NCBI GenBank assembly: GCA_020342115.1
Contig: CP070841.1
Span: 3,421,531-3,485,530 of the forward strand
DNA: 64,000 bases
Reading direction: 5' to 3'
From: Spirochaetota bacterium
GTDB lineage: Bacteria; Spirochaetota; B62-G9; DRHN01
Below the pieces are notes generated by a model. The model saw only the letters and a list, made by a program, of their open reading frames with translations, had not been told where the DNA came from and searched no databases. The translations under genes were made by a program, and so were the position numbers. Below are positions 33,261 to 49,815 of this stretch, piece after piece (position 1 is the stretch's first letter; each line of letters opens with the position of its first letter).

Positions 33261-33311
33261 TTGACAAACTCAGTGAATATGATAGACTGAATAAGTTCAG
33301 TGAATGCATTC
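33261..33311 (+). promoter_or_regulatory. Regulon promoter/operator cassette 1 (importer operon)
   Basis: TTGACA-N16-TAGACT followed directly by GAATAAGTTC-AGT-GAATGCATTC (33289-33311). Confidence 0.7.
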
Positions 33312-33517
33312 TATTTATTTTAACAGCAGCGCTCAATCGGGATATAATCGGGATGCTGGGGCTTGAAGGTTATTTTCTATTGTTATTGCGGGATAATTTT
33401 TAATCAGCCCCAATGATCAGTAAGTTATATAATAAGAAAGGAGGTGGTCTGCAGCTTTGAAATTATGAATCATGTGCTAACAATTGCATATGACAATTTA
33501 AAAAAGGAGAGGAGAAA

Positions 33518-34768
33518 ATGAAACATTTAAAATTTTGCTTTTGTATAATCTTGTTAGTTTCTTTTGTGATCTTTCCTATCACCGCGTGGTCGGAATCAAA
33601 GGTTGAAAAAGATAAAATCGTCATCGGTGCGGCAAGACCTCTGTCAGGCCCATTAGCTCAAATCGGAGACTTTGCAATGGGACCAATTATGACAATGTGG
33701 GCCGAGGAAGTCAATGCCAGGGGTGGTATTAATGTAGCTGGCAAGAAACTACCTGTAGAGTTGCTCATATATGATGATACAAGTGATTTGGGCACCTCGA
33801 CGAGACTGATTGAAAAATTGATTCTAGAGGATAAGGTTGACTTCCTGTTTCCCAACTGCTCCACCGCTTTCCTCTATGCTTCCGCCCCACTGGCCAATAA
33901 ATACAAGTATGTATACCTGGGTGCCGAGGGTGGTTGTACAACTCTCACCGCTATGCTTCCTGAGCTGCCCTACGTGTTTGGTGTCTTGAACTACTCTGAT
34001 TACTACCAGATACCTGTCCTGGCTGACGTTCTTGTGGCTAAAGGCGTGAAGACAGCAGCGATAATCTACATCAATGACCTCCACGGTGTGGAGTATTATC
34101 ATTCATCGCTGAGTGAATTTATGAAGAAAGGCATTACTATAGTTATGGCTGAGGCAGTTCCGCCTTTCAGTGAGGATGTAGAGCTGGTATTGAAGGCGGC
34201 CAGGGATTCCGGGGCTGATGCCCTTTGTGGCTATGTGTATCCCCCCACAACCATGGCGGTTCTTGGTCAAGCAGCGGCTATTGGCTATAGTCCAAAGGCT
34301 ATGGTACTTGGCCCTGGGGTCAACTTCGAGTTTTTTAAAGGCATCTTTGGTCCCCAGATGTTGGAGGGTGTAATGGGTTTTGGCGCTTATAACTCCAAAT
34401 CCTCCCCTGAAATCGCCGATTTTATTGCCAGGTTCATCAAACGCTGGGAGCTGGGGGCAATGGATTGGTGGGGTGGCGCCTTCTATTTTGCAGGGCTGCA
34501 ATGTTTTGAGAAGGCTATAGAGAAGGCCGGTACCCTTGACAATACAAGAGTCAGGGATATAATGGCCAAGGAACATTTCGATACGATTCTGGGAGATACC
34601 TGGTTTGATATGACCGCCGGTGGTGAAGGCGGAGGACTTCTGGCGAAAGAATGCCATCCAGGGCAGGTTGGCCAGTGGCAAAATGGCGAATATGAGGTTG
34701 TAGGCCCAACGGATAAGGCTACCACAGACCAAGTTATCTACCCCAAGCCAGCGTGGCCAGCACCTTAA
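33518..34768 (+). CDS. Liv-type (Peripla_BP_6) ABC substrate-binding protein
   Basis: Signal peptide, 416 aa, LivK/LivJ-family look. Followed by livHMGF-like genes. Confidence 0.8.
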   Translation: MKHLKFCFCIILLVSFVIFPITAWSESKVEKDKIVIGAARPLSGPLAQIGDFAMGPIMTMWAEEVNARGGINVAGKKLPVELLIYDDTSDLGTSTRLIEKLILEDKVDFLFPNCSTAFLYASAPLANKYKYVYLGAEGGCTTLTAMLPELPYVFGVLNYSDYYQIPVLADVLVAKGVKTAAIIYINDLHGVEYYHSSLSEFMKKGITIVMAEAVPPFSEDVELVLKAARDSGADALCGYVYPPTTMAVLGQAAAIGYSPKAMVLGPGVNFEFFKGIFGPQMLEGVMGFGAYNSKSSPEIADFIARFIKRWELGAMDWWGGAFYFAGLQCFEKAIEKAGTLDNTRVRDIMAKEHFDTILGDTWFDMTAGGEGGGLLAKECHPGQVGQWQNGEYEVVGPTDKATTDQVIYPKPAWPAP

Positions 34769-34901
34769 TAAACACAGAAATGAGCAGGCTGTCCAAGTGT
34801 GTACAATGGCACCTGTGAAGAGAGTATGTTTTTTGGGAGGCTTTTCGCTGCGCATTCGTACAGCCTGCGCACATAATTGCCAGAGTTAGAAAGCTATATT
34901 T

Positions 34902-35774
34902 ATGAACTTAGTGACAGTCCTGGATATATTCATTGGCGGTGTGTTGATTGGTGGCATATATGCCCTGATCGCCATGGGGTTAAGCCTTCAGTACGGTGTT
35001 TCCCGGGTATTGAATGTGTCACATGGTGAATTTATTATGCTCGGGGCATTTGCCACCTGGGTGCTGTACACCTCACTTGGCATTAATCCGCTGATTTCTC
35101 TGGTCATTGTCGGTCCCATTATCTTTGTAATAGGTTATCTGCTTCACAGAACTTTGTTCAGGAGTCTATTTAAGTCATCACCATCATTACCCGCCTTTGA
35201 GGGAAGTTCCCTGTTAGCAACCTTTGGTATCCTCTACATCATTCAAAATATAGCCATAATAACCTGGGGTTCTTCTTCAAAGGGATACACATTTTTAGCG
35301 TCTCCGGTTAATCTGGGGGGGGCGATATTTTCCGCCAATCGCCTCCTAACCCTTGGATTTGCCATAGGTATAGGAGTAGCCTTCTATGTTTTTTTAGCCC
35401 GTACCCGAATGGGAAAAGCGATCAGGGCAGCGGCCCAGGACCCTGATGCTGCAGGGCTTATGGGAGTAAACATCAACCAGGTGCTGGCTTTATGCTTTGG
35501 CCTTGGCACCTTATTGACCGGTCTTGCCGGCGTACTTTACAGTATGTGCTTCTCTATTCAGGCAACTATGGGTCTGGGATTTACCATAATTGCTATCATC
35601 GTGGTTGTACTGGGAGGGTTGGGCAGTATTCCCGGTAGTTTTCTCGGTGGTTTTATACTGGGTATTATTGGCCAGATAGTAACATATTTTGAGCCGAGCT
35701 TATCGCTGGCTGCCTATTATATCATCTTCATACTTCTGCTCCTGGTAAAACCAACAGGTATTTTGGGAAAGTAG
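34902..35774 (+). CDS. Branched-chain-amino-acid-type ABC permease (LivH-like)
   Basis: 290 aa, polytopic, LivH-like sequence. Confidence 0.85.
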   Translation: MNLVTVLDIFIGGVLIGGIYALIAMGLSLQYGVSRVLNVSHGEFIMLGAFATWVLYTSLGINPLISLVIVGPIIFVIGYLLHRTLFRSLFKSSPSLPAFEGSSLLATFGILYIIQNIAIITWGSSSKGYTFLASPVNLGGAIFSANRLLTLGFAIGIGVAFYVFLARTRMGKAIRAAAQDPDAAGLMGVNINQVLALCFGLGTLLTGLAGVLYSMCFSIQATMGLGFTIIAIIVVVLGGLGSIPGSFLGGFILGIIGQIVTYFEPSLSLAAYYIIFILLLLVKPTGILGK

Positions 35775-35778
35775 AGAA

Positions 35779-36729
35779 ATGGACATTATAAAGTTTACCT
35801 CTAAAAAGTCGTTTTCAATAGGATTCATTGGCTTTGTTCTGGTCCTGTTGGCTGCTCTGCCCCTCTACGCAAAAGGTTATACTCCCATACTGCTGACAAG
35901 CATCTTTATGTATGTCATCCTTTCTGTAAGCTGGACTCTGTTTTCAGGTCCTACCGGCTACATGTCACTGGCAACGGCGGCCTTTTTCGGGGTCGGCATC
36001 TATACGGCGGCTTTTCTTGGGAAAACCTTGCCACTGCCTGTCTTTATCATTTCTGGCGGCCTGATCAGTTCAATAGTTGCTCTCCTTGTTGGCGCTTTGA
36101 CGCTGAGGCTGAGGGGTATCTATTTCGCTATCTTTACCTTTGGGCTCGTTATGCTCATCTCGAACCTTCTCCTGTTCTGGGAGCTTCATGCAATGGAAAC
36201 ACGTGGCCGGTTCGTTGTCATCGTAGATTACAATACTATTTATTATACAATGCTCATCATTTTTGTGGCGTTAATGCTTACGGCCTATTTTATAAGACGC
36301 TCTAAATTCGGATTGGCGCTGCAGAGTATCGGAGAAAACGAAGAAGCTGCGGCCCATATAGGCATAAATGTAACCCTGGTGAAGGTTGTCAACTTTGCCG
36401 TGAGCGCCTTCTTCATCGGAGCAGCTGGAGCAACCATAGCCACACGATGGACATATGTTGACCCGTACATCGCCTTTAATCCGCTCTTTTCTTTTTTGCC
36501 GGTCTTGATGGCTATATTTGGTGGCATGGGACAGCTTTATGGGCCAGTAATAGGCGCAGTTATTTTTGCCTATCTACAGGAGATTCTCATAACAAGGTTT
36601 GCCGAGTTATATATGCTTATTTTCGGTGTTATACTTGTGTTCTCTATACTGTATATACCCAATGGTCTGGTAGGCCTGATACAGAAGTGGAGAAAGGGAG
36701 GTCAAGCTGGGGAACATGCGAGTAATTGA
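35779..36729 (+). CDS. Branched-chain-amino-acid-type ABC permease (LivM-like)
   Basis: 316 aa, polytopic, LivM-like sequence. Confidence 0.85.
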   Translation: MDIIKFTSKKSFSIGFIGFVLVLLAALPLYAKGYTPILLTSIFMYVILSVSWTLFSGPTGYMSLATAAFFGVGIYTAAFLGKTLPLPVFIISGGLISSIVALLVGALTLRLRGIYFAIFTFGLVMLISNLLLFWELHAMETRGRFVVIVDYNTIYYTMLIIFVALMLTAYFIRRSKFGLALQSIGENEEAAAHIGINVTLVKVVNFAVSAFFIGAAGATIATRWTYVDPYIAFNPLFSFLPVLMAIFGGMGQLYGPVIGAVIFAYLQEILITRFAELYMLIFGVILVFSILYIPNGLVGLIQKWRKGGQAGEHASN

Positions 36730-37435
36730 AGGTGAGAGGGTGACCAAGTATTTCGGGGGCCTGGCTGCAGTATCCAATGTTGACTTCCATGTAGACAATG
36801 GTGAGATCGTTGGTCTGATCGGCCCCAACGGGGCAGGTAAGACGACACTGTTCAATTTGATATCTGCTGCCATTGCTCTTAAATCGGGGGTCATACGGTT
36901 CAAAGGTGAGAAGATCAGCGGTTTAAAACCGTATCAAATCTGCAGGATGGGAGTATCGAGGACGTTTCAATCTGTTAAAGTATTCTCCAACTTATCCGTT
37001 CTCCAGAATGTAATGCTGGGATCGTTGTATGGAGCTCCAGCTGGCATGTCTGACGCAGATGCCAACAGCGAGGCTACAGAGCTGCTGGAGTTTGTGGGGC
37101 TTTCAAATGTGAGTATGATCCCTGCAAAAGACTTGACCCTGGCTAACCAGTAGCGCCTTGAAGTAGCCAGGGCGTTAGCCACAAAGCCGGAACTGTTGTT
37201 GCTTGATGAATTGATGGCTGGATTGAATCACACTGAAGTGGCTCAGGCTATGGAGCTTGTTAAAAAGATTCAGGATAAGGGAATTACCATCTTCATGGTT
37301 GAGCATGTCATGAAAGCAATTATGAGTATATGTGATCGAATTATGGTGCTCCATCATGGTGAGAAGATTGCTGAAGGAACTCCACAGGAGATCGCTGCCA
37401 GCAAAAAGGTCATTGAGGTTTATTTAGGAGAGTAA
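36716..37435 (+). pseudogene. LivG-like ABC ATPase interrupted by one in-frame TAG (37151-37153)
   Basis: Walker A GPNGAGKTT lies in ORF 36716-37153. Walker B LLLLDE lies in ORF 37196-37435. Both ORFs are in the same frame. The stop falls inside the signature region: LTLANQ-stop-RLEVARAL, against the recalled canonical L(S/A)YGQQ(R/K)RLEIARAL. Confidence 0.75.
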
Positions 37436-37439
37436 ACTC

Positions 37440-38144
37440 ATGCTGGAAGTATGCAATATCGATACTTTTTACGGTAAGATTCAGGCATTGTGGGGTGTTT
37501 CATTAAGAATCGATGAAGCGGAAATAGTCGCCCTGGTAGGAGCCAACGGAGCGGGTAAAACGACACTTCTCAACACTATATCCGGTTTGCTATGTCCCGC
37601 TTCAGGCAGTGCAACGTTTCTTGACAAGAGGATAGATGGGCTAACGCCTCATTACATTGCGGAGCTCGGTATTTCTCATATACCGGAGGGCAGAAGACTG
37701 TTTCCCGTTATGTCCGTGCGTGAAAATTTGGAGATGGGTGCCTATACCTACCACGCATGGAAAAGGAAAGAAGAAACGCTTGAGGAGGTTTATCGGGTTT
37801 TTCCATTGCTGAAAGAAAGAGAGGGACAATTAGCGAGAACATTGAGCGGTGGCGAGCAGCAAATGCTGGCTATGGGCCGGGGATTGATGTCAAGGCCAAG
37901 ACTGTGCATGTTCGATGAGCCATCGTCTGGCCTTGCGCCAAGGTTAGTATTAGAAGTTTTTAAAGTCATAAAGACCCTGCGTGAGCAGGGGATTACCATT
38001 TTATTGATTGAGCAGAATGTTAAACGCACACTCGAGATAGCTGACAGGGCATACGTACTGGAAAACGGTCGGATCGTCTCGGAGGGGAAAAGCAGTGAGC
38101 TTCTCCAGAACAATCACATTAAGAAGGCCTATTTGGGGCTATAG
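37440..38144 (+). CDS. LivF-like ABC ATPase
   Basis: GANGAGKTT, LSGGEQQ, MFDEPS. 234 aa. Confidence 0.9.
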   Translation: MLEVCNIDTFYGKIQALWGVSLRIDEAEIVALVGANGAGKTTLLNTISGLLCPASGSATFLDKRIDGLTPHYIAELGISHIPEGRRLFPVMSVRENLEMGAYTYHAWKRKEETLEEVYRVFPLLKEREGQLARTLSGGEQQMLAMGRGLMSRPRLCMFDEPSSGLAPRLVLEVFKVIKTLREQGITILLIEQNVKRTLEIADRAYVLENGRIVSEGKSSELLQNNHIKKAYLGL

Positions 38145-38192: not shown

Positions 38193-38822
38193 TTACTTCA
38201 TACTATCGATGATAATCTCAGTGGCAAGTCTGGCTCCTATCCCTGGCAGAAGACCGCACTTTTCAAAACCTTTCGCATGAGCGAATGCTTCCATATTCTC
38301 CTGGCTGGCTGCTGGATCCATGTAACGTCCGAATACAACATTTTCATGGATGTCAGGGCATACCACAGACCCTACTGTTTCTTCGAATCGGGGCATAAAC
38401 TTCCGGGCAGCCATTATGGTCTGGCCTGTTGCTTCGTAATCAAGCAGGTCATTACTGCCAAAATAAAGACCAAGGGCAATGAGAGCTCCTGTTACTCCTC
38501 CGCACATCCAGCCTGTTCCACCGAAACCTGGAAATGGAGACAGAGCTTTTATGATATCCATAGTACCCATACCAAACTCTTCAAGCAGGGCTAGTGCCGT
38601 GCTCTTTGCGCAATTGCGGGCAAGAAAGTTATATTCCTCAGCTCTCAGTTGAACGCGGTTTAATATCTGCTGCTTATTGGCCAGAATATCATCCCGGTTC
38701 AATGTTTTTCTGGAGATCCCGTTCGCAGCCAATTTTTTTAACCTGGTCTCGATTGCCTTTGTGTCCCACGTTCTATCTGCAAGTTTCTGCACTTTTTCCT
38801 TCAGCCGGTCGTAGTCTGCCAT
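38193..38822 (-). CDS. C_GCAxxG_C_C family protein (putative redox-active)
   Basis: NCAKSTALAL, MCGGVTGALIALG and later Cys residues fit my recollection of this family. 209 aa. Confidence 0.6.
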   Translation of the reverse strand: MADYDRLKEKVQKLADRTWDTKAIETRLKKLAANGISRKTLNRDDILANKQQILNRVQLRAEEYNFLARNCAKSTALALLEEFGMGTMDIIKALSPFPGFGGTGWMCGGVTGALIALGLYFGSNDLLDYEATGQTIMAARKFMPRFEETVGSVVCPDIHENVVFGRYMDPAASQENMEAFAHAKGFEKCGLLPGIGARLATEIIIDSMK

Positions 38823-38962: not shown

Positions 38963-39208
38963 TTATCCGCCGCTAATGGCCTGAAATATATTCACAGTGA
39001 TACCATGTTTTATTTTATCAGGCTTTTTCAGTACTCGGCCCTCCATAATTGCAACTGCGTTTTGGGATTCTGATAGTTCAAGAAGAGTGAGGAGGTCTTG
39101 GACCGTTGCCCCATCTGGAATCTCTACTTCCATACCCTGCAGATGCTGATAATCTGAGAATCTGCAGCTCAGAGTACCATATAGTTTGACCTTTAGCTTC
39201 ATCGCCAA
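38963..39208 (-). CDS. MoaD/ThiS-like ubiquitin-fold sulfur-carrier protein
   Basis: 81 aa ending in GG. Lies immediately downstream of aor. Confidence 0.7.
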   Translation of the reverse strand: MAMKLKVKLYGTLSCRFSDYQHLQGMEVEIPDGATVQDLLTLLELSESQNAVAIMEGRVLKKPDKIKHGITVNIFQAISGG

Positions 39209-39214
39209 TCCCTG

Positions 39215-40936
39215 TTAAAAATCAAAGGTACTGTCAATCTCCTCATCGCTTATAACAAAAACTTTATTATGTGGGGGAAGAGGTTCTTCGTAGAAGAATT
39301 TGGGCAATCGATCGTCCTTTTTCGTAAATCCGGCTTTCCTGTTGAATTCTCTCTCTGCTTTAAGAACCCGGATACCCATATCGTGTGGAAAATCGTCCGG
39401 TCCAAGCCGAATGCCTGTTTTAGCACTGATTACATTCCGAAAGGCCTCTTCACCTTCGGGACTTAATAGAGCTACATTCGCCATAAAGCACTGTCCCATG
39501 GTGTCAAAGGCTGCCATTGCTATTTGAAGGTACCTGGAAGTCTCAACCTGCCCTTCCACTTTTAATGGATCGAGCTTTTGTTCCAGATATTCACCGACCA
39601 CGTTACCGGCTGTATGATCCGCACCCATTGGCGATGTTGAAAACGTAACGCCATGACCCAGCATTGCCCTTGGATCATAACCGGCAATGCTCTGGCCCTT
39701 GATCACAGGAACATGCGTGTTGTTGAAATACCTGCCTGTGGCAGCTGGCCCGTTTCCGAGAATTGTACCGATTTCTGTGCAGCTGCCAATCTCCTCTACC
39801 AACTTTATGGCTGCTTTTCCGTCACCGAACGCCCTATACCCTGCATCCATTGCAACGGCAATGGCTACCCCTGTGCTCATGGTATCAACTCCAATATCAT
39901 CACACAGGTTATCTAGTCGTGCGATCGTGTCAAGATCGGCGATGGCTGTCATGCCACCCATCGCCCAGATGGTCTCATACTCCAAAGAACTGGTTATATA
40001 CTTTCCCCCTTTATCTACGAATACATTTGAGCAGTGAATGATGCACTGAGAACAACCCGTGTGTGTTGTTTTTCCACCACGCTTGCGGATGAGATCGGCC
40101 ATGACTTCTCCACTTATCTTTTCCCATCCGTCCAGCTCGCCCTTTTTAGCATTGTAACAGGGGAAGGCGCCCATGGTATTGACTGGAGCCACAAGACCGG
40201 CGGTGCCGAGTTTGGGCATAACTTCACTGTTCATATGATCATCTTTTACGATTTTAACAACCTTTTTTACCGCTTCTCTGAACGCTTCAGGATCTGCTAT
40301 GGTATCGGCGCTCTTTCCGCGTTGATCCACGATCAAGGCCTTGAGCCCCTTGGATCCCATAACCGCTCCCAGGCCCCCTCGTGCTGCAGCGCGGCAGGGA
40401 TGGCCGTCGACATCTGATGATTGTATGGAAGCCGCAGTCAGCATGTATTCGCCGGCCGGTCCGATACAGAGCACTGAGTTTTTTTCTCCATATGTCTTGC
40501 GGATCTTTTCAGTACACCTGTAAGTTCGCATTCCCCTGTATTCTTGGGCTGAAACAAGGCTTGCGTTTCCTTTCTCGTCAATCCTGAGGAGGTTGAGGTC
40601 TCCTTGCTTTGACTGTCCTTCAACGACAATCGCAGTAATTCCCAGTCGGGCCAGAGCCCTGGAAGCAGTGCCGCCTGCATTGCTCTCCTTGATCGTCCCT
40701 GTCAGAGGGCTTTTGGACCCTACTGAAATTCTGCTGGTATTTGGGAGTGGTGTTCCGCTTAAGAATCCCGGGGCAAAAATGAGCTTGTTTTCAGGTCCCA
40801 GCGGATCACATTTTGGAGGCACCTCTCTGTTGATCAATGTTGATGTAAGTCCTCTGCCTCCAAGTTCTTTGTAATCCTCTGGTACGCTCTCGGCTGTAAC
40901 GGTTTTTTTGTGCATGTTCACCCTTATCAGCTTCAT
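39215..40936 (-). CDS. aor: Tungsten-type aldehyde:ferredoxin oxidoreductase family protein
   Basis: AOR N-domain (MKLIRVN...GGRGLTS...SPLTG) and CSQCIIHCSN Fe-S motif. ATG 40936 follows AAGGAG. Confidence 0.85.
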   Translation of the reverse strand: MKLIRVNMHKKTVTAESVPEDYKELGGRGLTSTLINREVPPKCDPLGPENKLIFAPGFLSGTPLPNTSRISVGSKSPLTGTIKESNAGGTASRALARLGITAIVVEGQSKQGDLNLLRIDEKGNASLVSAQEYRGMRTYRCTEKIRKTYGEKNSVLCIGPAGEYMLTAASIQSSDVDGHPCRAAARGGLGAVMGSKGLKALIVDQRGKSADTIADPEAFREAVKKVVKIVKDDHMNSEVMPKLGTAGLVAPVNTMGAFPCYNAKKGELDGWEKISGEVMADLIRKRGGKTTHTGCSQCIIHCSNVFVDKGGKYITSSLEYETIWAMGGMTAIADLDTIARLDNLCDDIGVDTMSTGVAIAVAMDAGYRAFGDGKAAIKLVEEIGSCTEIGTILGNGPAATGRYFNNTHVPVIKGQSIAGYDPRAMLGHGVTFSTSPMGADHTAGNVVGEYLEQKLDPLKVEGQVETSRYLQIAMAAFDTMGQCFMANVALLSPEGEEAFRNVISAKTGIRLGPDDFPHDMGIRVLKAEREFNRKAGFTKKDDRLPKFFYEEPLPPHNKVFVISDEEIDSTFDF

Positions 40937-40971
40937 GTTGATCTCCTTGAAACACATAGTATAGTCTTCAG

Positions 40972-42069
40972 CTACTGTCGCAACACAGGTTTTATTACTC
41001 GCCTCTTTTCCATATCTTCCACCGCACGGTTTATCTCGTCGAACGGATAAAATGTAATCATCCTGTCAAAGGGCAGGCGCCCCTGTTTATACAGATCAAT
41101 CAGTTTGGGGATAAAAAGGTCCGGAACAGCATCGCCTTCGATGATTCCCCTGACTGTTCGTCCATTCATGATGAGGTCCATGTCCAGACTTACCTCCGTA
41201 CCCGGTGCCACAACCCCAAGGAGTCCGCAGACTCCGCAGCGTGGCAGAGCGTCCACAGCCTGCCGTAATACCTTTGGATTACCGGCACACTCCAGGCTGA
41301 AATCCGCCCCCCCACCTGTTATGTCCCGGATTGCTTCAACCGGGTCCACCTCAGTGAGGTTGATTGTGTGTGTAGCTCCGAATGATTTGGCAGTCTTCAG
41401 AGCCTCGGAACGCCTTGCTACGGCGATAATTGTGGTGCAACCGCACACGACTGCCCCGAGAATGGCGCTCAATCCCACATTACCGACACCGAATATGGCG
41501 ATGGAAGACCCGGGCTTTGGGTGAAACGTATTCATAACAGCGCCGACGCCGGTCTGGACACCGCAACCCATGGGTGCCAGAATCTCGAGTGGAACATCTT
41601 TCGGTACCTTGACCGCGTTTCGTTCGTTAGCCAGTGCGAAATCGGAAAAAGAGGACTGGTTGAAAAAAGAGCCGTGTATTACCTGGTCACCCTTTCTGAG
41701 TGTAGTGGTGCCGTCAGGACGGGCTCCATGAAAATTGTGCAGAAAGAAATTCAGACAGTAAGGATCCATGCCCGACTTGCACGATTTGCATACCCCGCAG
41801 CAGTCCCATGTAAGAACCACATGGTCATCCGGTTTTACCTTTGTCACCCGCGACCCCACCTTTTCCACAATACCGGCTCCTTCGTGTCCGAATACACTCG
41901 GAGGTGGCGGAATAGGCATATGACCGTCCCTGGCCTCCAGGTCCGTATGGCATATACCGGTACCGACAATTCTAACCAATACTTCATCATCGTTCGGTTC
42001 GCTGAGTTCCAGTTCCTCGATGTTGAATTTACCGGATTGCTCATAGACAACTGCCGCTTTAACTTTCAT
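40972..42069 (-). CDS. Zn-dependent alcohol dehydrogenase (aryl/benzyl-alcohol dehydrogenase-like)
   Basis: GICHTDL, GHEGAGIVEKVG, the structural-Zn Cys cluster CCGVCKSCKSGMDPYC, and GVGNVGLSA Rossmann motif. Confidence 0.85.
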   Translation of the reverse strand: MKVKAAVVYEQSGKFNIEELELSEPNDDEVLVRIVGTGICHTDLEARDGHMPIPPPPSVFGHEGAGIVEKVGSRVTKVKPDDHVVLTWDCCGVCKSCKSGMDPYCLNFFLHNFHGARPDGTTTLRKGDQVIHGSFFNQSSFSDFALANERNAVKVPKDVPLEILAPMGCGVQTGVGAVMNTFHPKPGSSIAIFGVGNVGLSAILGAVVCGCTTIIAVARRSEALKTAKSFGATHTINLTEVDPVEAIRDITGGGADFSLECAGNPKVLRQAVDALPRCGVCGLLGVVAPGTEVSLDMDLIMNGRTVRGIIEGDAVPDLFIPKLIDLYKQGRLPFDRMITFYPFDEINRAVEDMEKRRVIKPVLRQ

Positions 42070-42193: not shown

Positions 42194-42244
42194 TTGACAA
42201 GGCGAATCAATCTGTTAAACTGAATATGTTCAATGAATGCATTC
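42194..42244 (+). promoter_or_regulatory. Regulon promoter/operator cassette 3 (FAD/FeS operon)
   Basis: TTGACA-N16-TAAACT followed directly by GAATATGTTC-AAT-GAATGCATTC (42222-42244). Confidence 0.7.
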
Positions 42245-42281
42245 TATTTAAGACATTACGGTGCATGTACGGGAGCCATGT

Positions 42282-43748
42282 ATGGATAAAAAGATGGCGC
42301 AGTTGATGGAGATCGTTGGAAAAACGAATGTCTTTGATAATCCTCAAATGGGTAAGGATTTTTCACCTGTTTCAGATCATGTAACATCCATAAAACCCCG
42401 CTATATGGTCAAGCCAAAAGATGTAAATGAGGTTCAAAAGATAGTTATCTGGGCGAACAAAACACATACCCCGCTCATACCGTTGAGCTCAGGAGGGCCG
42501 CATTTTCGTGGTGATACATCTCCCACAGTACATGGTGCGGTTGTCGTGGATTTGAGCGGAATGAAGCGAATTCTAAAGATTGACAGAAGAAACAGATTGG
42601 TCTGCTTAGAGCCAGGGGTAACTTACACCACGCTTCTACCTGAACTTCAGAAAGAAGGTCTTCGAATTGCGATGCCGATTCTTCCCAGGAGCAATAAATC
42701 AGTACTAACAAGCCTCCTGGAAAGAGAACCTGTGCTGTCCCCTAAATATCAGTGGAATTTACTTGAACCGTTGCGGAGCCTGGAAATTGTGTGGGGTAAT
42801 GGGGATAAGATATGGAGTGGAAGCGGAGTTTTTCGCGGTGAGAAGGAGGAAGATTGGAAGGAGGGGCTTGTACCTGTGTGGGGGCCTGGGCCGATGCAGC
42901 TCGATTACTATAAATTCGTTTCTGCAGCGCAGGGCTGTATGGGTATTGTCACATGGGCATCCGTAAAATGCGAAGTTTTTCCTGAATCTCGAAAACTTTT
43001 CTTTATTCAGGCACAGAAGCTCGATGATGTAATCGAGTTTACCTATAAGCTCCTCAAGTTCAGACTCGGTGATGAGCTCTTTATAATAAACAATACCTGC
43101 CTGGGATATATTATTGCCGATAAGCCGGAGGAGGCCAGTGCCCTTAAAGCCACCCTTCCTGCATGGGCAGTGGTCTTGGGTATAACAGGCGGACAGATTT
43201 TACCCGGAGAAAAGGTTGAGGCTCAGGAAAGCGATATCAGCGACATCGCCCGGCAATTCGGGCTGGAGATGGTTCCAGAGATTGAGAACTGCTCAGGCCG
43301 GGAACTGCTGGAGCTTCTTTTAAAACCTTCTGAAGAACCTTACTGGAAACTAAGGTACAAGGGAGGGGCGCAGGAAATATTTTTTCTGACAACACTTGAC
43401 AGAACGCCGGGCTATGTTGAGACCATGCATTCAGCCGCTGATGAAAGTCAGTACCCGATCGGGGACATTGGAGTATACATCCAGCCGGTACATCAGGGAG
43501 TATGCTGTCATCTCGAGTTCGTTCTCCCTGTTGATCTTATGAGTCCAGCAGAGAGCTCTCAAGGTCAGAAGTTATTCCGTGATGCGAGCCACAGGTTTTT
43601 CAACCAGGGTGCATACTTCTCACGGCCGTACGGGATCTGGGCTGATATGGTCTATCAGAAGGATGCAAAGACCATGATGGTAATGCAAAAGGTGAAGGAG
43701 ATATTCGATCAAAATAACGTGATGAATCCCGGTAAACTCTGTTTTTAG
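42282..43748 (+). CDS. FAD-binding (PCMH/FAD_binding_4 type) oxidoreductase
   Basis: The N-terminal FAD_binding_4-like region resembles the GlcD / D-lactate dehydrogenase / VAO superfamily. ATG 42282 follows GGGAG. Confidence 0.7.
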   Translation: MDKKMAQLMEIVGKTNVFDNPQMGKDFSPVSDHVTSIKPRYMVKPKDVNEVQKIVIWANKTHTPLIPLSSGGPHFRGDTSPTVHGAVVVDLSGMKRILKIDRRNRLVCLEPGVTYTTLLPELQKEGLRIAMPILPRSNKSVLTSLLEREPVLSPKYQWNLLEPLRSLEIVWGNGDKIWSGSGVFRGEKEEDWKEGLVPVWGPGPMQLDYYKFVSAAQGCMGIVTWASVKCEVFPESRKLFFIQAQKLDDVIEFTYKLLKFRLGDELFIINNTCLGYIIADKPEEASALKATLPAWAVVLGITGGQILPGEKVEAQESDISDIARQFGLEMVPEIENCSGRELLELLLKPSEEPYWKLRYKGGAQEIFFLTTLDRTPGYVETMHSAADESQYPIGDIGVYIQPVHQGVCCHLEFVLPVDLMSPAESSQGQKLFRDASHRFFNQGAYFSRPYGIWADMVYQKDAKTMMVMQKVKEIFDQNNVMNPGKLCF

Positions 43749-43775
43749 CAGTACGGGTTGCAAAGGAGACTATAC

Positions 43776-45047
43776 ATGGCACTGGAAGATTTTGCAGCTG
43801 AAATGGACAGATGCAGTCAGTGTTCCTACTGTAAGTGGATTCCGTTCGATCATATAAAGAGCTGGAGATATGCTAAAAATTGCCCGAGTGTTTCATATAA
43901 TAACTTCAACAGTTATTCGGCACGCGGAAGATATGCAGTAGCACGCTCTCTCCTGAAGGGGCAAAGCGGGTATTCTGATAAAGTGCGTGACATAGTCTAT
44001 AAATGCATGACCTGCGGGTCATGTGATGTAAGCTGCAAGGTCTGCCGCTTCAATCTGGAGCCTCTGGATATGGTGCGTGAGCTCAAATTCAAGTTAGTCG
44101 AGGAAGGCCATGTCCTTGATGAACACCAGACAATAGTTGAGAGTCTGGACAAAGAACACAATACCATGCTTCAGCCTAAAACCGGAAGGGGAGAATGGGC
44201 TGAAGGGCTTGATGTGCCGCGTCTATTTTCAAAAGAGGCAGAGATCGTTTTTCATGCAGGCTGCAGGTTCAGCTATGACAGGGATCTATGGAATTCTGTG
44301 AGATCAGCGGTAACGATTTTAAAGAATGCAGGTATGGATGTCGGTATCATGGGAGAAAGGGAGATGTGCTGCGGTGGCAGGATATACTCGATGGGCTACA
44401 GAAACGAGTTTGTCAGGTTTGCAGAGTCAAATATAAAAGCATGGGCAAAAGCCGGTGTGAGGATGGTGGTAACCTCATGTGCAGATGGTTATCATGCATT
44501 CAAGCGCCTTTATCCACGATTGGGTTTTCAGGTTCAAGTGATGCATGTTGTGGAGTTACTTAATCATCTGATAAATGAAGGAAGGCTCGTATTACGTTCC
44601 GAAATTCCAATGTCCGTTACCTATCATGACCCTTGCCATCTTGGAAGGCAGGGGGAACCGTATGTACCGTGGGATGGTGTCGAAAAGAAAATAAAGAGCC
44701 AGATAATCGTCTATGAACCTAAAAGGCCCAGGTATAACGGAGCCTGGGGAATCTATGATCAGCCGAGAGAAATTCTGAAAAAGATTCCTGGCCTTCAGCT
44801 GCTGGAGATGGAGAGAGCGAGGGAATACAGCTGGTGCTGTGGAGCAGGAGGAGGAGTTAGGGAAGCCTATCCCGAGTTCTCGATGTGGACTGCCGCTGAG
44901 AGAATCGCAGAAGCAAAGGCTACGGGTGCAGAAGCATTGGTAACTGCCTGCTCATGGTGTGAGAGGAATTTCATGGACGCCATCATTGCACAGAGAGATG
45001 CAATGAAAGTCTATGACATTGTCGAGCTAGTTCAGGAAGCGATATAG
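43776..45047 (+). CDS. Fe-S protein with two 4Fe-4S motifs and two CCG domains (GlcF/HdrD/GlpC-like)
   Basis: CSQCSYC...CP and CMTCGSCDVSC, plus MCCGG and SWCCGAGGG. ATG 43776 follows AAGGAG. Confidence 0.8.
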   Translation: MALEDFAAEMDRCSQCSYCKWIPFDHIKSWRYAKNCPSVSYNNFNSYSARGRYAVARSLLKGQSGYSDKVRDIVYKCMTCGSCDVSCKVCRFNLEPLDMVRELKFKLVEEGHVLDEHQTIVESLDKEHNTMLQPKTGRGEWAEGLDVPRLFSKEAEIVFHAGCRFSYDRDLWNSVRSAVTILKNAGMDVGIMGEREMCCGGRIYSMGYRNEFVRFAESNIKAWAKAGVRMVVTSCADGYHAFKRLYPRLGFQVQVMHVVELLNHLINEGRLVLRSEIPMSVTYHDPCHLGRQGEPYVPWDGVEKKIKSQIIVYEPKRPRYNGAWGIYDQPREILKKIPGLQLLEMERAREYSWCCGAGGGVREAYPEFSMWTAAERIAEAKATGAEALVTACSWCERNFMDAIIAQRDAMKVYDIVELVQEAI

Positions 45048-45063: not shown

Positions 45064-46719
45064 ATGACGATGCCTAAGAACATATATAAGGCTTTAGAGG
45101 GCATTGTAGGGCCGGAGAATATATCCGATGATCCAGCGGTGTTGGATTCATACAGATACTCACTTGCTCATACAGCAATTCATCTGGGTCCTTTTTTCGA
45201 CACATTTACGCCCAGAGGATCAGCGGTTCTTTTACCCGGGAGTACTGAGGAAGTCCAGGCAATTGTGAAATTATGCAATAAATACAGGATAAAGTTTAAA
45301 GCCTCGAGCACTTTCTGGTCTGCGCAGGGGTATCCTTCGGAGGACAATACTATCCAGCTGGACATGAGAAGGATGGATCAAATACTCGAGATAGATGAGA
45401 AAAATATGTTTGCTGTGATCGAGCCTGGAGTGATAGGGGCCACACTTCAAGCAGAGGCTATGAAGGTGGGTCTTAATACGCATATTCCGGGAGCCGGCTG
45501 CAGCTGTTCCACACTGGCAGGCGCTACATCGTACTTCGGATCCGGGCCTAGCAATCTGTACGGCGGCTGGCACTACGATAACCTGCTTGGAGTAGAGTGG
45601 GTCATGCCCACAGGTGAAATCTTGAGAACAGGGTCGTTGGGTGCAGGCTGCGGCTGGTTCTGCGGTGAGGGACCGGGCCCAAGCATGAAAGGTGTGGCCA
45701 GGGGATTTATTGGCTCAAAGGGAGCAATGGGAGTATATACAAAATGTGCCATAAAGCTGTTTGCCTGGCCGGGGCCCACAACACTTCCTGTTGAAGGGAT
45801 CGTACCGGCTTACAAGACTTCACTACCGGATAATTTCAAGGCATATACAGTGGCTTTCCCTTCCTGGAAGTCATGGGCCGATGCGGTGTATACTATATGG
45901 GATACAGGCGTAGGATATATCGCTCATCGTCAGTACAGTATGTTCGGCAGGGATTTAAAATTTGCAATGATCAAAATACTCACCGACCCGACTAAAACAT
46001 TGGGCGATCTTGAAGAGATTCTTGATGATCCGGAAGTGCAAAAAATTACAGAGGAATCCAAGCGAGATTTTCAGATCGTTCTGGCCGGTATGACAAAACG
46101 CGATATCGAGTGGCAGGATAAAGCCCTGGACGAAATATTGTCCAGAACAGGAGGCTGGAAGGTCGAGGCCATGAATGAGCCTGAGATAAACAAATGGATG
46201 CTTCTTTACCTGATCAGGCTGGGACATAAAAACCTGAACCTTGTTTTCGGAGGGTCGTATGATGGTTGTTTTGGTCTGCTCGGCTCTGCGGACTTTGGAA
46301 CATCTCATGTCGAGGAGGCAGCTGAGTTCAAGAAAAGATGGGAGAAGCGCGGAGCTGTGGTTGAAGCTGGAGGAGACTGCATGATGGGGCCTATCGGCGG
46401 CCAGGGCGGAGGGGGCACATGTCTTTGGGAAAATTTCACATGCTTCGATCCGTATGATAGAGATTCAATTGAAGGAACCCTTGAATTTTTCGATGCATGC
46501 ACCGAGCTTGGTCTTGAAAGAGGTTGGGGTGTAGGTATGGAGAAGTGGAACTCTCAGGCCAGGGGGCCGGATGGCAGGATTGCTCCGAAAGAGGAGCGTG
46601 ACAGAATTCACCTGTCTGCTCCGCAGCCGGATATTTTTCGGTACCAGCATAAGATAAGGAAAGCCTTTAATCCTAACGATCTTGGTGATGCGTATTATGA
46701 AACACTGGATGATTCATAG
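45064..46719 (+). CDS. FAD-binding (PCMH/FAD_binding_4 type) oxidoreductase, 551 aa
   Basis: The N-terminus (LEGIVGPENISDDPAVLDSY...) is typical of FAD-linked oxidases. The long C-terminal substrate domain is unassigned. Confidence 0.7.
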   Translation: MTMPKNIYKALEGIVGPENISDDPAVLDSYRYSLAHTAIHLGPFFDTFTPRGSAVLLPGSTEEVQAIVKLCNKYRIKFKASSTFWSAQGYPSEDNTIQLDMRRMDQILEIDEKNMFAVIEPGVIGATLQAEAMKVGLNTHIPGAGCSCSTLAGATSYFGSGPSNLYGGWHYDNLLGVEWVMPTGEILRTGSLGAGCGWFCGEGPGPSMKGVARGFIGSKGAMGVYTKCAIKLFAWPGPTTLPVEGIVPAYKTSLPDNFKAYTVAFPSWKSWADAVYTIWDTGVGYIAHRQYSMFGRDLKFAMIKILTDPTKTLGDLEEILDDPEVQKITEESKRDFQIVLAGMTKRDIEWQDKALDEILSRTGGWKVEAMNEPEINKWMLLYLIRLGHKNLNLVFGGSYDGCFGLLGSADFGTSHVEEAAEFKKRWEKRGAVVEAGGDCMMGPIGGQGGGGTCLWENFTCFDPYDRDSIEGTLEFFDACTELGLERGWGVGMEKWNSQARGPDGRIAPKEERDRIHLSAPQPDIFRYQHKIRKAFNPNDLGDAYYETLDDS

Positions 46720-46751
46720 TACCACGAGCTTTCCTGGACGGAAGATTAATT

Positions 46752-46785
46752 AGTTTCTGGTGAATAATTCACCAGAAACTTTGTT
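46752..46785 (+). terminator. Intrinsic terminator
   Basis: 29-nt perfect palindrome AGTTTCTGGTGAATAATTCACCAGAAACT followed by TTGTT. Confidence 0.6.
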
Positions 46786-46963: not shown

Positions 46964-47551
46964 TCAGCTTCTGAGGGTTGAAACAAGAATCCCAATATAT
47001 TTATGCATTGTCGCTTCAAGATCGTAGCGGCCTTCGTGTAAACTCCACTCGAATACAATACCACGGGCCATAACGAATAAAAATCTTGCGAGCTCTTCCG
47101 GGTCTGTATCCATCCTGATTTCTTTCTTTTCCTGACCCTTGCGTATCAGATCCTGCAGCAGCGTCAGCATGGGCCTGCTTTTTTTAATGAAGAATTTTAT
47201 TTTCGGATTGAAGAGCTGCTGGGTCATTTCAACACCGCTGGCCACATTGAATTTGGCATAATGGTCAAAATATTCAACAATCTGATCTGGAACACTTGCC
47301 TTATTTAAACTGGAAATTACCTCTGTTGAGAAATATTCGTCAGCTTTGCGGAAAATCTCAGCGAGAATATCGTTTTTTGATTTGAAGTAATGATAGAGAG
47401 CTCCAACCGAAACATTCGCCTTTTTGCTTATATCTACAATTGTAAGTTTCTCGAATCCCTTTTTGTCCATGATATCGATAGCGGCATTATAAATCCTGTT
47501 CTTTGTTTCTATGGCCTTCTCCTGCCGCCTGGTAAGGGGCTTCTTTCCCAT
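46964..47551 (-). CDS. TetR/AcrR-family transcriptional regulator
   Basis: N-terminal HTH IYNAAIDIMDKKGFEKLTIVDISKKANVSVGALYHYFKSK. 195 aa. Divergent from the corrinoid operon. Confidence 0.9.
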   Translation of the reverse strand: MGKKPLTRRQEKAIETKNRIYNAAIDIMDKKGFEKLTIVDISKKANVSVGALYHYFKSKNDILAEIFRKADEYFSTEVISSLNKASVPDQIVEYFDHYAKFNVASGVEMTQQLFNPKIKFFIKKSRPMLTLLQDLIRKGQEKKEIRMDTDPEELARFLFVMARGIVFEWSLHEGRYDLEATMHKYIGILVSTLRS

Positions 47552-47762
47552 ATCTGATCCAGCGATTAAATAATCTTTTAATAAAAAATCAGTATAACAT
47601 AATTACAGGAGATTGTAAAGTTGCGGTTTTGGTACCGCCTTGCGAGTGATGAGATAACTATTACCTTATAATGGGAATTATTTATTCTATGGTCATAAAC
47701 GGCCGGTTTGCGTATGGTTGGTTTATGGTATGCTATTATAGTTGGTTCTCTTAAATTGTTTA

Positions 47763-47813
47763 TTGACAATTAGGACAAATTTGATAAGCTGAATATATTC
47801 AGTGAATGCATTC
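47763..47813 (+). promoter_or_regulatory. Regulon promoter/operator cassette 4 (corrinoid operon)
   Basis: TTGACA-N16-TAAGCT followed directly by GAATATATTC-AGT-GAATGCATTC (47791-47813), then TATTAGGGGG (RBS) and the ATG. Confidence 0.7.
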
Positions 47814-47825
47814 TATTAGGGGGTT

Positions 47826-48458
47826 ATGGTTATGCCAAGAGAATTGGTAAATTTATTATCGAATCTGAAAGAACCGGAATCGATTGATTATGTCGAGAAG
47901 TCTCTGGGAAGGGGAGTTGACCCTCTACAACTGTTAGAGCAAGCTAGGGAAGGTATGAAGATCGTTGGTGAGAAGTATGCCGATGAAAAATATTTTATTC
48001 CAGACCTGATCTTTTCCGGTGAAATCCTGAAGGGTGTAGTCGATAAATTAAAACCACATCTCAAGAAGAAAGAAGAAACAAGCCCTCTGGGAAAGGTGGT
48101 GTTAGGAACAGTGGCTGGCGATATCCATGATATAGGAAAAAACCTCGTGGTCTTTATGCTTGATGCCAGCGGTTTTGAGGTTTTGGACCTTGGCGTCGAT
48201 GTGCCGGTAGAAAAATTTGTGAATGCAATTAAGGAGACCGGCAGCAGGGTGATTGGACTTAGTGGATTCCTGACCCTGGCCTTCCAGTCGATGAAGCAGA
48301 CAGTCGATGCGATCAAGGAGGCCGGGCTGCATGACGTCAAAATCATGATCGGAGGCGGCCAGATTGACGAAAGGGTCAGGAGTTTCAGCGGTGCGGACGC
48401 TTATGGAAAAGATGCAATGGAGGCTGTTAAACTGGTAAAAGGATGGATAGGAGGGTAA
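47826..48458 (+). CDS. Cobalamin-binding corrinoid protein (MtaC/MtbC-like)
   Basis: 210 aa. B12-binding DxHxxG motif GDIHDIGKNLV, preceded by a helical cap domain. Confidence 0.85.
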   Translation: MVMPRELVNLLSNLKEPESIDYVEKSLGRGVDPLQLLEQAREGMKIVGEKYADEKYFIPDLIFSGEILKGVVDKLKPHLKKKEETSPLGKVVLGTVAGDIHDIGKNLVVFMLDASGFEVLDLGVDVPVEKFVNAIKETGSRVIGLSGFLTLAFQSMKQTVDAIKEAGLHDVKIMIGGGQIDERVRSFSGADAYGKDAMEAVKLVKGWIGG

Positions 48459-48462
48459 GAAA

Positions 48463-49815
48463 ATGGAAGAGAAAAAGGCAGAGTTATCAGCAGAGCAGAA
48501 GCAGGATGAGCTGTTTCAAAGATGGCTTGAACCCAAAGATCCTGAGGGAAATAATCTGACATTTAAGAATTCCGGCGCAGAGAAATTATACAGGGAAAGA
48601 ATAACCAGGATAAAAGATGCCATTCAATTGAAGAAATTACCTGACAGAGTGCCGGTCTGCCCTCTCCCCAGTATGTTTCCTGCTTTTTATTCCGGAATTA
48701 GCCTTCAGGAGGCAATGTATGACTACGACAAATGCTGTGCGGCATGGAAAAAATATGTTCTGGATTTTGAGCCGGATGCACATATGGGCTGTGCAGCCCC
48801 TGGCTCCGGGAAATTCTTTGAGATTCTAGACTACAAATTGTACGCATGGCCAGGTCACGGTGTTTCTCCGGAACACAGCTACCAGTGCATTGAAGGAGAG
48901 TACATGATGGCGGATGAGTATGATGAGCTGATACATGATCCATCTCACTTCTTCAATAATATTTACCTGCCGCGAGTATTCGGAAGCTTGGACCCTTTCA
49001 AGATGCTTCCATTTCTTCCCGGTATATTGGAAATGTATGGAGTTGCTTTTAACTTTATACCTTACGGGCTGCCCCCTGTTCAAACGGCCCTCAAGGCTCT
49101 TATGGAAGCCGGGAGTGAAGCACTGAAATGGGCAGGAGCAGTGGGCGGTTTCGATGGTGAGATGGCAGCATTGGGATTCCCGCAGATCATTGGCGGGTTT
49201 ACCAAGGCACCGTTTGACACACTCGGCGATACACTCAGAGGCACAAAAGGGATAATGCTGGATATGTACAGGCAGCCGGATAAGCTCCTTCAGGCTCTGG
49301 AGGTTATAACGCCTCTCATGATCAAGATGGGAGTGGGTGCGGCAAAAATGAACGGAAAACCCATAATATTCATGCCTCTGCATAAAGGAGCTGACGGTTT
49401 CCTCTCCGATGATCAGTTTAAGAAATTCTACTGGCCTACTTTCAGAAAGGTCATTGTGGGTCTAATCGAGGAGGGATGCGTGCCCTTTCCGGCAGCCGAA
49501 GGTGGATACAACTCTCGGCTTTCCGTCATCAAGGACGTACCAAAAGGAAAGACTGTGTGGATGTTTGATAAGACAGATATGGCCAACGCCAAGGAGATAT
49601 TGGGCAATACTGCCTGCATCCTCGGCAACATGCCTCTCTCTATCTTAAACCTGGGTACACCCGATGATGTGAGAGAATATGCCAGGAAACTTATCGATGA
49701 TGCGGCTGAAGGCGGTGGTTACATAATGGCCAATGGTGCGTTCTTTGATAATGTCAAGGCGGAAAATCTTAAGGCTATGGTGGACTTTACCAAGGAGTAT
49801 GGTGTTTATAAGTAG
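48463..49815 (+). CDS. Uroporphyrinogen-decarboxylase-family (MtaA/CmuA-like) methyltransferase, 450 aa
   Basis: URO-D-like look and tight coupling (4-nt gap) to the corrinoid protein. About 100 aa longer than the MtaA length I recall (about 340 aa). The family assignment is from memory and needs HMM confirmation. Confidence 0.6.
   Translation: MEEKKAELSAEQKQDELFQRWLEPKDPEGNNLTFKNSGAEKLYRERITRIKDAIQLKKLPDRVPVCPLPSMFPAFYSGISLQEAMYDYDKCCAAWKKYVLDFEPDAHMGCAAPGSGKFFEILDYKLYAWPGHGVSPEHSYQCIEGEYMMADEYDELIHDPSHFFNNIYLPRVFGSLDPFKMLPFLPGILEMYGVAFNFIPYGLPPVQTALKALMEAGSEALKWAGAVGGFDGEMAALGFPQIIGGFTKAPFDTLGDTLRGTKGIMLDMYRQPDKLLQALEVITPLMIKMGVGAAKMNGKPIIFMPLHKGADGFLSDDQFKKFYWPTFRKVIVGLIEEGCVPFPAAEGGYNSRLSVIKDVPKGKTVWMFDKTDMANAKEILGNTACILGNMPLSILNLGTPDDVREYARKLIDDAAEGGGYIMANGAFFDNVKAENLKAMVDFTKEYGVYK

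Follow-up and report, generated by a model that had tools for sequence, protein, structure and literature searches.

Why corrinoid-dependent methyl transfer, alcohol and aldehyde oxidation, a flavin/iron-sulfur dehydrogenase and a Liv-type importer should be encoded side by side, and whether they are controlled together, is the question raised by a 16.9-kb island in a Spirochaetota bacterium. The island lies within a stretch of 64,000 nucleotides (nt) analysed here (GenBank assembly GCA_020342115.1, contig CP070841.1, positions 3,421,531 to 3,485,530 of the forward strand), hereafter the window, whose own coordinates are used throughout. It comprises four operons: livKHMGF; adh-aor-moaD-C_GCAxxG; FAD1-FeS(CCG)-FAD2, encoding two flavoproteins and an iron-sulfur (FeS) protein with CCG domains; and corrinoid protein (CP)-methyltransferase (MT). 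An initial annotation had counted 15 genes in the block, in agreement with our tally of 14 structural genes plus one for a TetR-family protein, and had proposed that four near-identical promoter/operator cassettes place all of them under this protein, which is indeed the sole regulator encoded inside the block. The analyses below make it likely that the locus is a horizontally acquired island whose four operons are governed by one FadR-like TetR acting on shared operators.

Four promoter/operator cassettes in the window

Both pattern and weight-matrix scans recovered the four cassettes heading the four operons, with the coordinates and sequences that the initial annotation had given:

33261-33288, plus strand: livK promoter, TTGACA-N16-(TGa)TAGACT, with 10/12 consensus matches and a TG extension; conserved in relatives
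33289-33311, plus strand: operator 1 (livK), GAATAAGTTCAGTGAATGCATTC, 32.4 bits
42130-42152, minus strand: operator 4 (adh), reading GAATATATTCACTGAACATATTC on the minus strand, 35.4 bits
42155-42183, minus strand: adh promoter, TTGATA (42183-42178)-N17-(TGa)TAAAGT (42160-42155), back to back with the FAD1 promoter
42194-42221, plus strand: FAD1 promoter, TTGACA-N16-(TGt)TAAACT
42222-42244, plus strand: operator 2 (FAD1), GAATATGTTCAATGAATGCATTC, 33.2 bits
47763-47790, plus strand: CP promoter, TTGACA-N16-(TGa)TAAGCT; orthologous promoters have TAAACT or TAAAGT
47791-47813, plus strand: operator 3 (CP/MT), GAATATATTCAGTGAATGCATTC, 36.1 bits

The pattern GAATANNTTCANTGAATNNATTC, allowing up to 3 mismatches, occurred at only these four places in the 64 kb, compared with an expectation of 0.13, and none of 100 shuffled sequences reached this count. 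A weight matrix built from 21 orthologous sites scored the four operators at 32-36 bits, while the next-best site in the window scored 3.5 bits and the maximum in shuffled sequence was 16.5 bits. After the -10 hexamer the plus-strand cassettes share the sequence GAATA..TTC-A.T-GAATGCATTC-TATT. Each operator starts 0-2 nt past the -10 hexamer; the direct abutment that had been described is found at the three plus-strand cassettes, but at adh a 2-nt gap intervenes. Similarly, the upstream AATTGTTT motif that had been included in the common layout is present at two plus-strand sites but not at the third. A TGn extension precedes the -10 box in all four cassettes, and the CP promoter depends on it, its TAAGCT (47785-47790) being a weak -10 box with three of six consensus matches that a consensus scan did not list. 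Because each operator begins so close to the -10 box and spans about 23 nt, it would cover the transcription start, as judged from the usual distance between -10 and start.

Read together with the T and A on either side of it, the operator consists of two tandem TGAATnnATTCA palindromes, 13 bp apart. In 75% of TetR-linked sites the 23-mer has a T immediately before and an A immediately after it, which makes TGAATnnATTCA the unit, with one base before its repetition.

Conservation of the operator and its linkage to TetR homologues

Ten loci (L001-L010) were fetched via the TetR protein, independently of the motif. In every one of them the TetR gene adjoins FAD1-FeS-FAD2, and the ADH/AOR/ThiS/C_GCAxxG (alcohol dehydrogenase, aldehyde oxidoreductase), Liv and CP-MT modules are usually near, in varying order and orientation and sometimes fused into longer operons. 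The arrangement TTGACA-N16/17-(-10)-operator recurs upstream of orthologous FAD1, CP, adh and livK genes on contigs of Spirochaetota, Chloroflexi and Bacillota, and an alignment of 21 promoters, taken from loci both near and remote, keeps this layout, with a variable -35/-10 spacer and a constant operator. Even at loci whose proteins are only 42-54% identical, the 23-mer directly follows TTGACA-N16/17-(-10) in every case, and 15-16 of its 23 positions are invariant and palindromic, while spacer and flanks have freely diverged.

The operator also keeps its position relative to particular genes. It lies 7-27 nt upstream of FAD1 at all five TetR-ascertained loci and at 27 of 28 motif-ascertained loci, and 11-13 nt upstream of the CP gene at five of five loci (two of two in the TetR-ascertained subset). 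These five include L056, a separate contig of the L004 genome to which the CP-MT operon has moved with its cassette retained. The livK operator stands 200-370 nt upstream of the start codon in the window and in L138, L142, L154, L162 and L172, the distance in the latter five being 280-370 nt, and the adh operator is conserved in L001, L004, L195 and L230. No operator was found at genes internal to operons (AOR, FeS, FAD2, MT, livH, C_GCAxxG) in the TetR-ascertained loci, and the C_GCAxxG gene had an operator of its own in none of ten loci.

An exact-pattern scan of 596 Gbp of species-representative genomes returned at least 118 stretches, where about 70 matches would be expected by chance for 17 specified bases by our own arithmetic. 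Among the matches listed, a TetR-like open reading frame (ORF) was present in 45 of 118 stretches and within 400 bp of the motif in 34, the motif typically lying 70-250 bp upstream of the TetR start. The same scan of metagenome contigs gave 105 stretches, about 45 of them with island genes or TetR homologues and 22 with the motif adjacent to a TetR gene. The TetR homologues at scanned sites are 24-54% identical to the window protein, and in other bins of Spirochaetales, Chloroflexi and Bacillota they face FAD1-FeS-FAD2 homologues.

On contigs of Bacillota, Calditrichales and fermentation metagenomes, this operator separates the gene of a TetR homologue (27-44% identical) from a divergently oriented one for a flavin reductase of about 620-700 aa (L013, L029, L062, L075, L118, L143, L164, L166, L183, L186 and others), of either the FMN_bind-FAD_binding_2 or the OYE-Pyr_redox_2 (enoate-reductase) type. 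The operator/regulator family is thus far wider than the island. Since diverged TetR homologues pair with different enzymes, the motif tracks the regulator family rather than the target genes, and on this comparative evidence it behaves as would be expected of a cognate operator.

Seventeen of the metagenome matches were false positives inside two unrelated conserved coding genes of about 437 aa and 555 aa (L136, L137, L149, L163, L170, L177, L233; and L169, L178, L187, L191, L198, L200, L201, L207, L210; soil and other metagenomes), and pattern counts alone thus overstate the operator family.

A FadR-like TetR as candidate regulator

The gene of the candidate regulator is divergent from the CP cassette:

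46964-47551, minus strand: FadR-like TetR-family regulator, 195 aa, proposed operator-binding repressor (Pfam TetR_N, PF00440, 4.6e-14, residues 20-66)

Public data hold 390 homologues of this protein, and the best 120 of the 390 are 71-100% identical to it and carry the labels Spirochaetota, Anaerolineae and Chloroflexi. Its closest full-length solved relatives are Bacillus FadR proteins (YsiA; 5gp9/5gpc, 3whb, 1vi0; E 5e-13 to 8e-12), with whose crystal structures residues 18-193 align at about 25% identity, our estimate from the alignment; matches to TetR_C_13/24/4/6 are weak. Against the FadR equivalog NF053878 it scores 69.6 bits, the cut-off being 200. B. halodurans FadR contacts DNA through a Gly and a Tyr of its recognition helix (G42, Y45; PMC5397183), and both are kept in the island protein, as seen in the alignment of VGALYHYF with DGTIYLYF. 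FadR binds GATGAATGAATACTCATTCAT as a dimer of dimers (PMC5397183). Common to the FadR box and the island operator are a TGAAT/ATTCA half-site and an extended pseudo-palindrome of about 21-25 bp, but the island arms TGAAT/ATTCA stand 2 nt apart in a tandem 12-bp unit, whereas the FadR site is one long palindrome (TGAATGAAT-A-CTCATTCA); the island operator is accordingly not a FadR box. The regulons differ as well, that of FadR being beta-oxidation and that of the island an importer, a corrinoid methyltransferase, ADH/AOR and a flavin/FeS dehydrogenase. Beta-oxidation genes are absent from the island, and only L008 has them next to a homologue. Judged from its sequence, the island regulator would work like a FadR-type TetR but is not a FadR.

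At L008 (2603-9846) the TetR/FAD-FeS module stands beside an AMP-forming CoA ligase, a thiolase, a FadB-like enzyme and an ADP-forming acyl-CoA synthetase, a context that hints at a CoA-dependent branch for side-chain shortening and at a possible CoA-thioester ligand.

TetR-family repressors bind palindromic operators that overlap promoters, and QacR does so as two dimers on one 28-bp IR1 site. This last precedent had been invoked for the island, and in part it fits: here too a TetR-family repressor is paired with an extended palindrome over the promoter start region, and occupancy by two dimers is plausible. However, operator sequence and symmetry differ from those of QacR, which is not among the solved relatives listed, and FadR, a dimer of dimers, is the nearer precedent. 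The proposal of a regulon under one TetR fares well in comparison across genomes, in view of the cross-phylum conservation of the site, the relocated CP-MT module of L056 and the linkage to TetR genes, far commoner than chance would give, and the island sites resemble TetR-family operators in that the palindromes abut the -10 box, are conserved across loci and lie near TetR homologues; binding itself is predicted.

Given the observed sites, their promoter position, their conservation and their TetR linkage, we infer binding, stoichiometry, repression, ligand and chemistry as follows. The FadR-like TetR of the island most likely binds the operator, probably as two dimers, and once bound would block RNA polymerase at all four promoters. 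Its ligand would be the substrate or an intermediate of the pathway, possibly a CoA thioester, and would release the repressor, upon which uptake, methyl removal and redox steps would be induced together.

Several observations weigh against this account. No operator is recognisable at the promoter of the TetR gene itself, the nearest being 240 bp upstream in the divergent spacer, and in none of six TetR-ascertained loci does one lie within 350 bp of the TetR start, which leaves autoregulation in doubt here. The adh site is not universal: in L009 (15215-15275), which is the closest of the protein-fetched relatives and whose TetR is 84% identical, a single 10-bp palindrome (GAATTTATTC) is left at the adh promoter, and in L142 no operator lies within 350 bp of adh. 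The L009 site points to each palindrome being separable as a binding unit, and to variation in adh control between genomes. The operator's four GAAY/RTTC tetranucleotides are oriented -> <- -> <-, with 6-7 bp separating symmetric partners, an orientation that, in our reading of the sequence, misfits a simple 15-bp TetR site and makes any binding geometry provisional. A strong match to a promoter, situated downstream of the livK operator (TTAACA-N17-TATAAT, 33320-33348, 11/12 consensus matches), which is not conserved in relatives, could bypass operator control if active. Neither a methyltransferase II (MT-II) nor a corrinoid activase was found by Pfam among 49 of the 54 window ORFs of at least 90 aa. 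Finally, an in-frame TAG at 37151-37153, just past the LTLANQ motif of the ABC ATPase, interrupts the livG-like gene (36716-37436). It sits where three orthologues have a conserved Lys codon (AAG/AAA), and the remainder of the gene is intact, so that a nonsense mutation of recent date or an error of assembly seems likelier than recoding; the Liv importer may be defective in the source genome. Pyrrolysine insertion or read-through at this TAG was rejected because TAG is a common stop, terminating 17 of the 54 long window ORFs.

The alternative that survives best leaves the regulation as it is and changes the chemistry to that of a non-aromatic hydroxy-/methoxy-carboxylate or alcohol; we regard it as possible though doubtful, and its evidence is given with the enzymes below. 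Much less probable is that an unlinked regulator of another kind, such as a Rex-type redox sensor, reads the operator and that the TetR protein regulates something else. The Rex box is TTGTGAA-N4-TTCACAA, and every 12-bp unit has TGAA-N4-TTCA, with GTGAA in one flank; moreover, the genes concerned encode redox enzymes, and no operator lies close to the TetR start in the window. Against this, the outer positions (TTG...CAA) of a Rex box are not conserved, the pattern within the 64 kb is confined to island promoters, and the tandem pattern occurs beside TetR genes in the genome and metagenome stretches counted above; to our knowledge, importer and methyltransferase operons are not typical Rex targets either. 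Least credible of all is the view that the cassettes are mere duplicated promoters whose palindromes persist by common descent with no repressor function, for although the three plus-strand cassettes are paralogous across 80 nt (84% and 69% identity) and the spacer between the back-to-back -35 boxes is shared, as in paralogous copies, the operator has stayed invariant and palindromic where spacer and flanks diverged, and the motif also occurs in unrelated promoters beside distant TetR homologues.

Gene products, substrate and origin of the island

All gene families that had been named in the initial annotation were confirmed with Pfam and NCBIfam:

33518-38144, plus strand: livKHMGF-like ABC importer, with Peripla_BP_6, two BPD_transp_2 permeases and two ABC ATPases (Pfam)
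38193-38822, minus strand: C_GCAxxG_C_C family protein, last gene of the adh operon (Pfam, NCBIfam)
38963-39208, minus strand: MoaD/ThiS-like small protein (Pfam ThiS 5.9e-7), C-terminus ...AISGG, a Gly-Gly end
39215-40957, minus strand: aldehyde:ferredoxin oxidoreductase family protein (AOR; AFOR_N and AFOR_C, Pfam 4.8e-65 and 4.4e-70)
40972-42069, minus strand: Zn-dependent alcohol dehydrogenase (ADH), first gene of the adh operon (Pfam)
42261-43748, plus strand: FAD1, FAD_binding_4 flavoprotein, 495 aa (Pfam)
43758-45047, plus strand: iron-sulfur protein with two CCG domains and a 4Fe-4S dicluster domain, TfrB/GlpC/HdrD-like (Pfam)
45064-46719, plus strand: FAD2, FAD_binding_4 flavoprotein, 551 aa (Pfam)
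46752-46780, no strand given: hairpin with a perfect 13-bp stem between the convergent FAD2 and TetR genes, terminator-like on both strands
47826-48458, plus strand: corrinoid protein (B12-binding_2 and B12-binding), with DxHxxG as GDIHDIG (Pfam PF02310, PF02607; NCBIfam)
48463-49815, plus strand: UroD-superfamily methyltransferase, 450 aa, long MT-I type (Pfam URO-D)

The best solved relative of the methyltransferase is CdmB (4.7e-39 over residues 208-448; 450 compared with 429 aa). CdmB is a UroD-superfamily protein and is closely related to the aromatic O-demethylases MtvB, OdmB and VdmB, and closest to archaeal MtoB, but its substrates are haloalkanes rather than methoxylated aromatics (PMC13222342). 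As in MtvABC, OdmABCD, MtoABCD and CdmBCA, a long, putative MT-I directly follows a DxHxxG corrinoid protein, and the protein encoded here has the features of a cognate corrinoid protein (PF02310, PF02607 and GDIHDIG). O-demethylase systems also include an MT-II and an activating enzyme, whereas the island is without both among the 49 ORFs scanned with Pfam; in L004, a Pterin_bind (MT-II) gene adjoins the TetR gene. The sequence of the methyltransferase does not discriminate between substrate classes (aryl methyl ether, haloalkane or other).

FAD1 and FAD2 score best against structures of vanillyl-alcohol oxidase (VAO), p-cresol methylhydroxylase (PCMH) and eugenol oxidase (E 1e-22 to 1e-12). 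For FAD2 the match covers the FAD-binding domain only, whereas for FAD1 it spans residues 8-270, some 60-75 residues past the domain, and FAD1 prefers VAO/PCMH-type structures (1e-16 to 1e-12) over D-lactate dehydrogenase (1e-4). The likeness extends to the use of two different flavoprotein subunits, as in the alpha/alpha' subunits of Geobacter PCMH, and to an aldehyde-oxidising partner, the layout of the pch operon pairing PCMH with an aldehyde dehydrogenase. An aldehyde-oxidising enzyme always accompanies the flavoproteins, namely AOR here and an aldehyde dehydrogenase (Aldedh) in L008, L009 and L089, following FAD2 directly in L008 and L009. The electron partner differs, being a CCG iron-sulfur protein in the island and cytochrome c or O2 in VAO and PCMH. 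The FeS subunit matches the NCBIfam TfrB model at 3.2e-50, under its cut-off, and resembles GlpC- and HdrD-type CCG proteins as well. The partner of distant FAD1-FeS-FAD2 trios is an aldehyde dehydrogenase in L089 and a TRAP carboxylate transporter in L112; the pathway is therefore likely to involve an aldehyde intermediate and a carboxylate. The best NCBIfam matches of the ADH are class III and NDMA-dependent ADH models, every one under its cut-off.

In FAD2, Cys146, Cys148, Cys196, Cys200, Cys228 and Cys439 are nearly invariant among 22 homologues, in motifs GSGCSCS and SGCGWFCGEG; they include the pairs C146/C148 and C196/C200. Such cysteines are uncharacteristic of VAO-type flavoproteins and might be ligands of a metal or an iron-sulfur cluster.

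Our best single guess for the substrate is a methoxylated aromatic alcohol, aldehyde, acid or alkylphenol. The vanilloid-like compound that had been suggested is compatible with the CdmB-type methyltransferase, the VAO/PCMH-like FAD domains and the pairing with Aldedh, but other findings speak against it. At the Tyr position of the (F/G)xYGG motif, which we take to be the phenolate-binding residue of VAO (Tyr108), FAD2 has Ser (consensus stfWSaqgyP) and FAD1 has Arg (ggphfRgdtsP), although a loop shift is possible. The C-terminal 312 aa of FAD2, corresponding to the cap domain, gave no match in the PDB even at E=10, and an AlphaFold2 model of FAD2 from a 23-sequence alignment had a predicted local distance difference test (pLDDT) score of 46.6, too low for fold comparison. 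Matches of the binding protein to the PDB were a mixture of urea-, amino-acid- and aromatic-acid-binding proteins and are not diagnostic, and the missing MT-II and activase count here as well.

The non-aromatic alternative would make FAD1-FeS-FAD2 a 2-hydroxyacid dehydrogenase of the GlcDEF or D-lactate dehydrogenase kind, fed by ADH/AOR. Its subunit composition agrees with that of GlcDEF, likewise two FAD_binding_4 proteins and a CCG iron-sulfur protein, and of FAD/CCG dehydrogenases of the GlpC, TfrB and HdrD type (two FAD_binding_4 proteins with a 4Fe-4S/2xCCG protein). Homologues carry the JGI label "glycolate oxidase", the NCBIfam matches are to GlcD, GlcF, GlpC and TfrB models, the TRAP transporter of L112 stands in place of the Liv importer, and the residue at the VAO/PCMH Tyr position is not Tyr. 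The GlcD and GlcF scores, however, are far under their cut-offs (TIGR00387, 52 and 78 bits compared with 568; GlcF, 37 compared with 333), Pfam detected no FAD-oxidase_C domain (PF02913) in FAD1 or FAD2, the gene order is D-F-E-like with both flavoproteins long (495 and 551 aa), FAD1 prefers the VAO/PCMH-type structures, and the closest solved relative of the methyltransferase comes from a clade otherwise acting on aryl methyl ethers or haloalkanes.

A bolder version of the aromatic reading, which we put forward tentatively, is that the dehydrogenase represents an O2-independent, so far undescribed branch of the VAO/PCMH superfamily, a heteromeric flavoprotein wired to an HdrD/TfrB-like CCG FeS subunit in place of cytochrome c or O2, that oxidises alkyl-/hydroxymethyl-(methoxy)phenols and forms, with ADH, W/Mo-AOR and an O-demethylase, a mobile "anaerobic vanilloid funnel", the operator/TetR family being sensors of phenylpropanoid-type compounds. 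If so, a single FadR-like TetR would switch the funnel, which would have spread among Spirochaetota, Anaerolineae and Bacillota in anoxic sediments; the rationale for a phenylpropanoid-type sensor is that the family would also control ene-reductases in Bacillota.

In agreement with the earlier statement that no pathway with this gene combination had been described, our literature searches found no paper on the operator, the regulator subfamily, the gene combination, or an O-demethylase together with AOR, vanillyl alcohol and TetR, and no description of characterised O-demethylase systems co-regulated with ADH, AOR and a flavin/FeS dehydrogenase. Repression by a TetR protein at a palindrome that overlaps the promoter is textbook logic; the tandem-palindrome operator family, the regulon composition and probably the flavin/CCG dehydrogenase are new. 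If the regulon reading is true, a regulator/operator pair with a sharply defined 23-25-bp site offers a route to the inducer, and hence the substrate, of an abundant unannotated enzyme family, which counts 1663 FAD2 homologues, many of them 77-90% identical across phyla. Dozens of natural operator/regulator variants are available, some in cultured Clostridium, Halanaerobium and Anoxynatronum strains. The island would then also provide a candidate for a new type of anaerobic dehydrogenase, a VAO-superfamily flavoprotein pair with a CCG iron-sulfur partner, and a defined set of genes with which to test how uncultured Anaerolineae and Spirochaetota of sediments turn over methylated and possibly lignin-derived compounds anaerobically, a process that is poorly understood.

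As to the layout of the operons, the C_GCAxxG gene lies 140 nt after the ThiS-like gene in the window and always follows it co-directionally (or follows AOR, if the ThiS-like gene is uncalled) in L001, L004, L006 and L009. The hairpin at 46752-46780 is likely a bidirectional terminator. The long livK leader (33312-33517 in the window, and in five relatives) contains a GC-rich stem and conserved blocks, one of them CAAGAAAGGAGGTG, some 70 nt ahead of the true ribosome-binding site; it may represent a leader element so far unrecognised. The idea that livK is preceded by a conserved leader peptide was rejected, as the small ORFs differ between relatives, and an Rfam scan of the complete window gave four tRNAs only, with no riboswitch in the livK leader or the TetR-CP spacer. 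A 97-aa ORF at 32971-33264 is probably no gene, because it lacks a Pfam match and its translation is of low complexity.

The island is bordered by a direct repeat:

32917-33021, plus strand: left copy, about 105 nt, with an internal hairpin of 23-nt arms; 83% identical to the right copy
49896-50000, plus strand: right copy, 83% identical to the left copy

No further copy was found in the window or in 233 fetched loci, and possible identities of the repeat are an att-like duplication and a mobile intergenic element. The flanks carry housekeeping genes, including parAB, a class I release factor (PCRF/RF-1 domains), an SRP54-type GTPase and serS, and have a GC content of 39-44%, compared with 45-51% in the island. 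Island proteins are 77-90% identical to proteins of Anaerolineae and Chloroflexi, and FAD2 is 77-89% identical to more than 100 protein clusters, several of them labelled Anaerolineae or Chloroflexi. The flanking 105-nt repeats, the raised GC content and the cross-phylum identity together argue for horizontal acquisition, and horizontal spread of the entire regulated module is the simplest explanation.

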